The translations under genes were made by a program, and so were the position numbers. The notes below the pieces were generated by a model. That model was given only the letters and a program-made list of their open reading frames with translations, was not told where the DNA came from and did not search any database. From the NCBI RefSeq assembly GCF_041886205.1, contig NZ_CP169029.1: 64,000 nt of DNA; one strand, given 5' to 3'. The stretch comes from Escherichia coli. GTDB taxonomy: Bacteria > Pseudomonadota > Gammaproteobacteria > Enterobacterales > Enterobacteriaceae. Shown here piece by piece: positions 7,431-7,576 of this stretch. How positions within the stretch are numbered: the stretch's first letter is position 1; every line of letters begins with the position of its first letter.

Positions 7431-7450
7431 AGTGTTGCCTTTTTGTTATC

Positions 7451-7486
7451 AATAAAAAAGGCCCCCCGATTTGGGAGGCCTTATTG
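7451..7486 (-). terminator. pheA attenuator terminator hairpin (minus strand)
   Basis: On minus strand ggcctcccaaatcggggggcc followed by ttttttatt, between pheL stop and pheA start. Confidence 0.7.
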
Positions 7487-7528
7487 TTCGTCTTCGCATT
7501 CTGTTTCACACGACGAAACGCCTCCCAT

Positions 7529-7576
7529 TCAGGGGAAGGTAAAAAAGAATGCGAAGAAAAACGGTGTGTGTTTCAT
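7529..7576 (-). CDS. pheL: pheA leader peptide (15 aa, 7 Phe codons), translated here as [15 protein letters not shown]
   Basis: Manual translation of the minus strand; not in the ORF track because it is below the length cut-off. Confidence 0.85.
   Translation of the reverse strand: [15 protein letters not shown]

Follow-up and report, generated by a model that had tools for sequence, protein, structure and literature searches.

The DNA between the start of the short pheL reading frame and the start of pheA is, almost beyond doubt, the ribosome-mediated transcription attenuator of the Escherichia coli pheA operon (the pheL leader). It lies in the window, the whole 64,000-nucleotide stretch of E. 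coli DNA that we analyzed, where a sequence-only reading had proposed a ribosome-stalling pheA attenuator at 7431..7576, an interval that starts at the pheL ATG and stops one base short of the pheA ATG. The assignment is supported here by the sequence elements, by homology to a curated family, by alternative folds that depend on the position of the ribosome, and by conservation and covariation within the Enterobacterales, and our search for evidence contradicting the pheL-pheA attenuator found none. The pheL-pheA attenuator with threonine at codon 4, the form carried by the window, is an ordinary, already known, textbook element.

The pheL reading frame occupies 7529..7576 on the minus strand. 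Its translation agrees with the earlier description of a 15-codon leader with seven Phe codons: the 15 sense codons and the stop read AUG AAA CAC ACA CCG UUU UUC UUC GCA UUC UUU UUU ACC UUC CCC UGA (on the minus strand, cttAAGGAaacaaacATG AAA CAC ACA CCG TTT TTC TTC GCA TTC TTT TTT ACC TTC CCC TGA). The 3' end of the frame, UUC_CCC_UGA (codons 14-16), is the one that defines ‘group A’ pheL (Gurvich et al. 2011). Among the matches listed, the strings upstream of the leader in relatives carry AAGGA/AAGGAA at the same position as the pheL Shine-Dalgarno sequence. The GC-rich hairpin and U-run reported just before pheA were also recovered. A terminator scan returned a stem at 7482..7458 in which 7 of the 10 base pairs are G-C; its loop measures 5 nt, and TTTTTT comes next (AAGGCCTCCC-AAATC-GGGGGGCCTT as minus-strand DNA). 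The T-run lies 24 nt before the pheA ATG (7430). The elements of the leader and its terminator are:

7584..7588, minus strand: pheL Shine-Dalgarno sequence AAGGA, read from the sequence, 7 nt 5' of the ATG
7561..7553, 7549..7541 and 7537..7535, minus strand: the Phe codons of pheL, from the translation
7458..7482, minus strand: terminator hairpin (3:4), AAGGCCUCCC-AAAUC-GGGGGGCCUU, −18.5 kcal/mol
7454..7459, minus strand: T-run (U6), the predicted end of attenuated transcripts, from the sequence and the terminator scan
6270..7430, minus strand: pheA, chorismate mutase / prephenate dehydratase, 386 aa, from the ORF list and identical RefSeq E. coli DNA

Many strains are 100% identical here, and for one of them, SK1144, RefSeq annotation names pheL as WP_001386991.1; the labels on the matched stretch are raiA, ‘Phe leader region’, pheL and pheA. 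The raiA gene, so named from the annotation of identical DNA, is a 113-aa ORF at 8021..7680 on the minus strand. Two long frames on the plus strand, of 219 aa (7443-8102) and 160 aa (7591-8073), run antisense to pheL and raiA and are almost certainly spurious.

The leader also shows homology to a curated family. The Rfam family RF01859 (Phe_leader) matches 7577..7452 on the minus strand and scores 132.2 bits, where the gathering threshold is 55 (E=3.5e-25); the match covers model positions 1-125 of 125, and a search of the whole window with Rfam gave the same result. Every sequence-level feature that defines RF01859 and the pheL-pheA attenuator and that we looked for is present. The 161-nt leader folds at −52.9 kcal/mol, compared with −31.9 +/- 4.0 kcal/mol for dinucleotide shuffles (z = −5.3). 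Matches of Arrc14, ctRNA_p42d, anti-hemB and sX6 over the leader fall far under their gathering scores; the terminator accounts for them, and they were dismissed. Elsewhere in the window, above-threshold Rfam matches comprise RyfD (10883-11021), a complete rRNA operon with tRNA-Glu (14019-19029), ES036/CssrF (30781-30823), AsrC, the antisense of rseC (37290-38121), rncO (40905-41119), ohsC (44532-44596) and GlmY (53797-53944), as expected of an E. coli chromosomal region.

Of 5426 complete E. coli genomes, 5425 contain the 281 bp around the leader, 4688 of them with an identity of at least 99%. The element is nearly universal in the species and is annotated automatically by RefSeq; its recognition in the window is mainly a matter of correct annotation.

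A more trivial origin for these features would be that the hairpin and T-run form the terminator of raiA or a generic intergenic terminator, and that the Phe-rich mini-ORF arose by coincidence in T-rich DNA. Phe-rich frames can indeed arise by chance in such sequence, and 15-codon stretches with seven Phe occur at two loci in the 64 kb, pheL itself and 30976..31023 on the plus strand. Stretches of this length with at least six Phe nevertheless exceed chance expectation: they number 34, at a handful of loci, against a mean of 0.4 in block shuffles. The second of these, at ~30.97-31.02 kb, is the mere antisense of a Lys-rich tail; considered as another leader, the frame at 30973..31056 (plus strand) was rejected, being antisense to the Lys/Arg-rich C-terminus of a 444-aa ORF at 30897..32231 on the minus strand. 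The pheL frame differs in having a Shine-Dalgarno sequence and an ATG, in its full-length, 132-bit match to Phe_leader, and in its conservation immediately 5' of pheA in some 119 species among the matches listed, where the wobble and Ala-codon positions of the ORF covary with the downstream arm. Moreover, raiA has a terminator of its own at 7656..7637 on the minus strand, upstream of pheL, and the hairpin at 7482..7458 is therefore not that of raiA. The chance that the terminator and the mini-ORF are coincidental is negligible, this reading being already refuted by conservation and covariation.

To follow the attenuator through its alternative structures, the RNA spanning the ATG through the U-run was folded with pairing forbidden within a 30-nt ribosome footprint. 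The segments involved are:

7539..7562, minus strand: segment 1, the 5' arm of the 1:2 ‘pause/protector’ helix, Phe codons 6-12, from the minimum free energy (MFE) fold and the Rfam consensus
7486..7509, minus strand: 3' arm of the 1:2 helix, part of segment 2, from the folds and comparative pairing
7520..7527, minus strand: segment 2 core, UGGGAGGC, from constrained folds
7472..7479, minus strand: segment 3 core, GCCUCCCA, common to the antiterminator and the 5' arm of the terminator, from constrained folds

In the absence of a ribosome, the constrained fold (−51.7 kcal/mol) consists of the long 1:2 helix, a CUUCCC:GGGAGG hairpin and the terminator; in this hairpin, the CUUCCC at the end of the ORF (7538..7533) pairs with GGGAGG (7526..7521) as long as no ribosome is stalled. 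When the A site is placed on any of Phe codons 6-10 of the full-length transcript, the MFE structure becomes the antiterminator, in which UGGGAGGC (7527..7520) pairs with GCCUCCCA (7479..7472) and CCUUCCCC with the 3' arm of the terminator, and the terminator is lost. When the ribosome is at UGA, UGGGAGGC is covered, and the 1:2 helix and the terminator return in the constrained fold. In transcripts ending before segment 4, the state that matters kinetically, segments 2 and 3 pair with stalls at codons 6-12, and no 2:3 pairing was seen in these transcripts without a ribosome or with one at the stop codon. Folding of the leader had been suggested as a check on the sequence-only reading, and it does yield mutually exclusive antiterminator and terminator structures set by the position of the ribosome: in silico, the antiterminator is predicted to exclude the terminator and to be unmasked only with a ribosome on the Phe codons.

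These folds are consistent with a mechanism in which transcription would begin slightly upstream of pheL and RNA polymerase would pause past the 1:2 hairpin, leaving the ribosome translating pheL to decide the outcome. With charged tRNA-Phe plentiful, the ribosome would reach UGA and cover UGGGAGGC, blocking the antiterminator and allowing the 3:4 hairpin and U-run to terminate transcription before pheA. With charged tRNA-Phe scarce, the ribosome would stall on the seven Phe codons and hold segment 1, and UGGGAGGC would then be free to pair with GCCUCCCA once the latter is made; with the 5' arm of the terminator occupied, polymerase would read into pheA. The same 1:2 / 2:3 / 3:4 scheme is described for E. 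coli pheL in PMC3082878, and the literature summarized there establishes the response of readthrough to charged tRNA-Phe in vivo for K-12. The 1:2 hairpin of pheL is reported to be a NusA-sensitive pause (‘protector’) structure (PMC9291695), and regulation is roughly 10-fold according to the literature. The allele with Thr4 would be expected to respond to charged tRNA-Phe in vivo in the same way, judging from its 280/281 identity to K-12.

Relatives were retrieved with the degenerate pattern TTY x3, NNN, TTY x3, NNN, TTCCCCTGA, taking one genome per species, which returned at least 120 loci; the 120 listed include neither Salmonella nor E. coli itself. Because the pattern fixes them, the Phe codons and UUC_CCC_UGA are conserved by construction in this set; it places no constraint on the downstream segments, on the Ala codon that covaries or on the linkage to pheA. 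Among the 120 loci listed, 119 are from the Enterobacterales and include Escherichia albertii, Citrobacter, Enterobacter, Klebsiella, Kluyvera, Pantoea, Erwinia and Serratia, as well as Yersinia, Pectobacterium, Rahnella, Brenneria and others. The remaining one, from a Phycisphaerales MAG (L017), has no pheA nearby and was discarded as a chance match. An N-terminus resembling PheA (strict motif) begins 95-244 nt downstream in 105 of the 120 loci listed, and a variant pheA start could be seen by eye in all but two of the others.

The start codon of pheL varies among these loci. It is GTG in Kluyvera, Klebsiella, Raoultella and Pseudocitrobacter, apparently TTG in Chimaeribacter, and in Yersinia similis seemingly a GTG one codon further upstream. 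In one symbiont, Candidatus Symbiopectobacterium sp. ‘North America’ (L114), the leader is preserved as far as the terminator's 3' arm, unrelated sequence stands in place of the T-run, and a pheA start is absent from the 129 nt available; the attenuator of this symbiont genome may be disrupted.

The matches listed contain 110 distinct leaders, which were aligned with MAFFT (alignment A2). Over these 110 leaders, 95.2% of the cells of the 1:2 helix are paired, compared with 45-58% when the partners are slid by 1-3 columns. Compensatory double changes occur at two pairs of this helix, C-G to U-A in 7 sequences and A-U to U-A in 15, or 22 in all, and the covariation score was reached by none of 500 shuffles. 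The 2:3 core behaves differently: no covariation beyond G-C to G-U was found among the 110 leaders, where the GGAGGC core of GGGAGGC is invariant and its first G is at least 90% conserved. Comparative support for the 2:3 helix is thus indirect, consisting of near-invariance without compensatory change. This near-invariance fits the point made in PMC3082878 that the 2:3 bases are locked by three overlapping helices.

In the terminator 3' arm, the alignment is out of register because loop lengths differ; pairs there were not counted, and each terminator was folded separately. A terminator hairpin is present in 110 of 110 leaders listed, in 78 distinct sequences with ΔG of −14 to −22 kcal/mol. 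The E. coli 3' arm, GGGGGGCC, gives a U-G wobble in the middle of the stem, where many other genera have GGGAGG (U-A). Across the roughly 119 Enterobacterales species listed, the triad of Phe-rich leader peptide, GGGAGGC and GCCUCCC is tightly fixed, in contrast to the drifting residues 2-5 and loops.

Transcripts ending before segment 4 show the switch in 110 of 110 leaders listed, with 2:3 pairing only when the ribosome is on Phe codon 7, 10 or 12. In equilibrium folds of the full-length leader with a stalled ribosome, the terminator is kept in 88 of these 110 relatives and lost in 22, which argues that the decision must be kinetic, that is co-transcriptional, as the classical model holds. 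The equilibrium fold of the full-length leader was accordingly rejected as a test of the switch, since the decision is taken during transcription. Unlike those 88 relatives, the E. coli sequence of the window, with its U-G wobble in the terminator stem, flips to the antiterminator at equilibrium under a stall.

On another view, stalling at the Phe codons is not the sole input, and much of the control lies where the ORF ends. Termination might be slow there, ribosomes might read through UUC_CCC_UGA or shift to the +1 frame at it, or the nascent peptide might stall as in TnaC. The window has the invariant UUC_CCC_UGA, and its +1 frame is open for 51 codons, ending at a stop at 7377..7375 on the minus strand, 53 nt into pheA (PMC3082878 places this stop ~80 nt downstream of the pheA start). 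In K-12, about 15% of ribosomes shift to the +1 frame at UUC_CCC_UGA and basal pheA expression depends on the efficiency of release at the pheL stop (PMC3082878), and heavy ribosome density and extended products have been recorded there (PMC5373646). Yet Salmonella tRNA-Pro mutants with changed frameshifting show unchanged pheA expression, and the frameshifting was judged incidental by the authors (PMC3082878). The readthrough products at the K-12 pheL stop depend on the weak RF2 of that strain and vanish with efficient B-type RF2 (PMC5373646), which is said to be present in most strains other than K-12; prfB lies outside the window. A substantial dependence of control on the ORF end is therefore improbable, and events there at most modulate the basal level and do not replace attenuation by ribosomes stalled on the Phe codons.

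The window differs from K-12 at a single base of the leader region:

7566, minus strand: C, giving codon 4 ACA (Thr), against T, ATA (Ile), in K-12; the sole difference in 281 bp, from the alignment

The K-12 sequence compared was that of the derivative TG1, which reads ATA and shows one mismatch in 281 aligned columns, with no frameshift. The sequence-only reading had given Ile at this position in K-12 and suspected a strain difference; it was right, although the emphasis is to be reversed, Thr being the common E. coli allele and the Ile of K-12 the minority. Alleles were counted with 33-nt queries centered on the variable base in megablast with 28-nt seeds, and the counts are allele-specific because every such seed must contain the variable base. 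ACA is found in 3993 of 5426 complete E. coli genomes (73.6%) and ATA in 1392 (25.7%), many of which are K-12 laboratory derivatives. In the outgroup E. albertii (L006), codon 4 is ACT, also Thr. On the strength of the majority count and the E. albertii residue, Thr4 is the norm in E. coli and probably the ancestral state, and the Ile4 of K-12 looks like a simple derived C to T transition.

Over the 119 Enterobacterales leaders listed, residues 2-5 are hypervariable, position 4 being V, L, T, F, I, K, R, D or others. Base 7566 is unpaired both in the Rfam consensus and in the MFE structure and lies outside every predicted helix. The two alleles share the same MFE structure, with MFE values of −51.7 and −51.7 and ensemble values of −53.34 and −53.41. 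Thr4 is a common, neutral-looking allele at a hypervariable, structurally unpaired position. Both alleles are nevertheless frequent, and AUA is a rare codon in E. coli, which might slow the first ribosome, relative to the release of polymerase from its pause, and shift the set-point of the attenuator, making Thr4 and Ile4 functionally distinct variants. With the drift of residues 2-5 among genera, the same energies for both alleles, and the Thr of E. albertii against an Ile that looks derived, such a distinction is highly improbable. That ACA-Thr4 (~74%) and AUA-Ile4 (~26%) set slightly different basal levels of pheA expression is a long shot; if they did, K-12 would provide a slightly unusual reference for the attenuator.

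The enterobacterial leader-peptide attenuators of other amino-acid pathways (trpL, hisL, leuL, thrL and ilvL) follow the same logic as pheL: a short ORF with many codons for the cognate amino acid is combined with a pause hairpin, with antiterminator and terminator structures that exclude each other, and with a U-run. They differ from pheL in regulatory codons, sequence and Rfam family (pausing is compared in PMC9291695). In pheL, the switch region takes in the stop and the last two codons, where CUUCCC pairs with GGGAGG; because of this location, three helices constrain the same bases (PMC3082878). The closest known system is the K-12 pheL-pheA attenuator (RF01859; ‘group A’ of PMC3082878), which has the same architecture and matches at 280 of 281 bases. 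The two share the Shine-Dalgarno sequence, the 15-codon ORF with seven Phe ending in UUC_CCC_UGA, the 1:2/2:3/3:4 segments, the terminator and the distance to pheA, and differ by the one base of codon 4. The ‘group B’ pheL of Vibrio, Shewanella and others (PMC3082878) is likewise rich in Phe codons, upstream of pheA and a case of attenuation; unlike the leader of the window, it lacks the UUC_CCC_UGA end and is much more diverse in sequence. The window leader belongs to the conserved enterobacterial group.

Upstream of the leader, a candidate promoter could be read by eye:

7626..7631, minus strand: putative −35 of the pheL-pheA promoter, TTGACA, a perfect consensus read from the sequence, its promoter role inferred
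7602..7607, minus strand: putative −10, TACTGT, also a reading of the sequence, 18 nt after the −35 and weak (3/6 consensus)

A consensus scan of 7200-8200 reported no σ70 promoter pair at its threshold; its silence on pheL is explained by the best −10 candidate matching at only three of six positions, and the TTGACA / 18 nt / TACTGT arrangement is for that reason given as a reading by eye. The putative −10 would place the transcript start near 7596-7594 and make the attenuated leader RNA ~140 nt long. The attenuated pheA leader RNA is ~140 nt.

The putative −35 begins only 5 nt downstream of the raiA terminator. The window has no insertion between raiA and pheL; E. coli O158:H23 (NZ_CP076709.1; L003 / L124, locus 1-19915 of L124) carries a prophage there. 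Its cargo includes a tyrosine integrase, a Cox-like protein, a replication endonuclease, antiterminator Q and tRNA genes, and its junction lies inside the stem of the raiA terminator, leaving the pheL −35 intact. The 281-bp query matched at 5580 places in 5425 E. coli records, so that up to ~155 genomes would have a second partial copy; judging from the one strain examined, these copies are possibly att-site duplications from prophage insertions like that in O158:H23.
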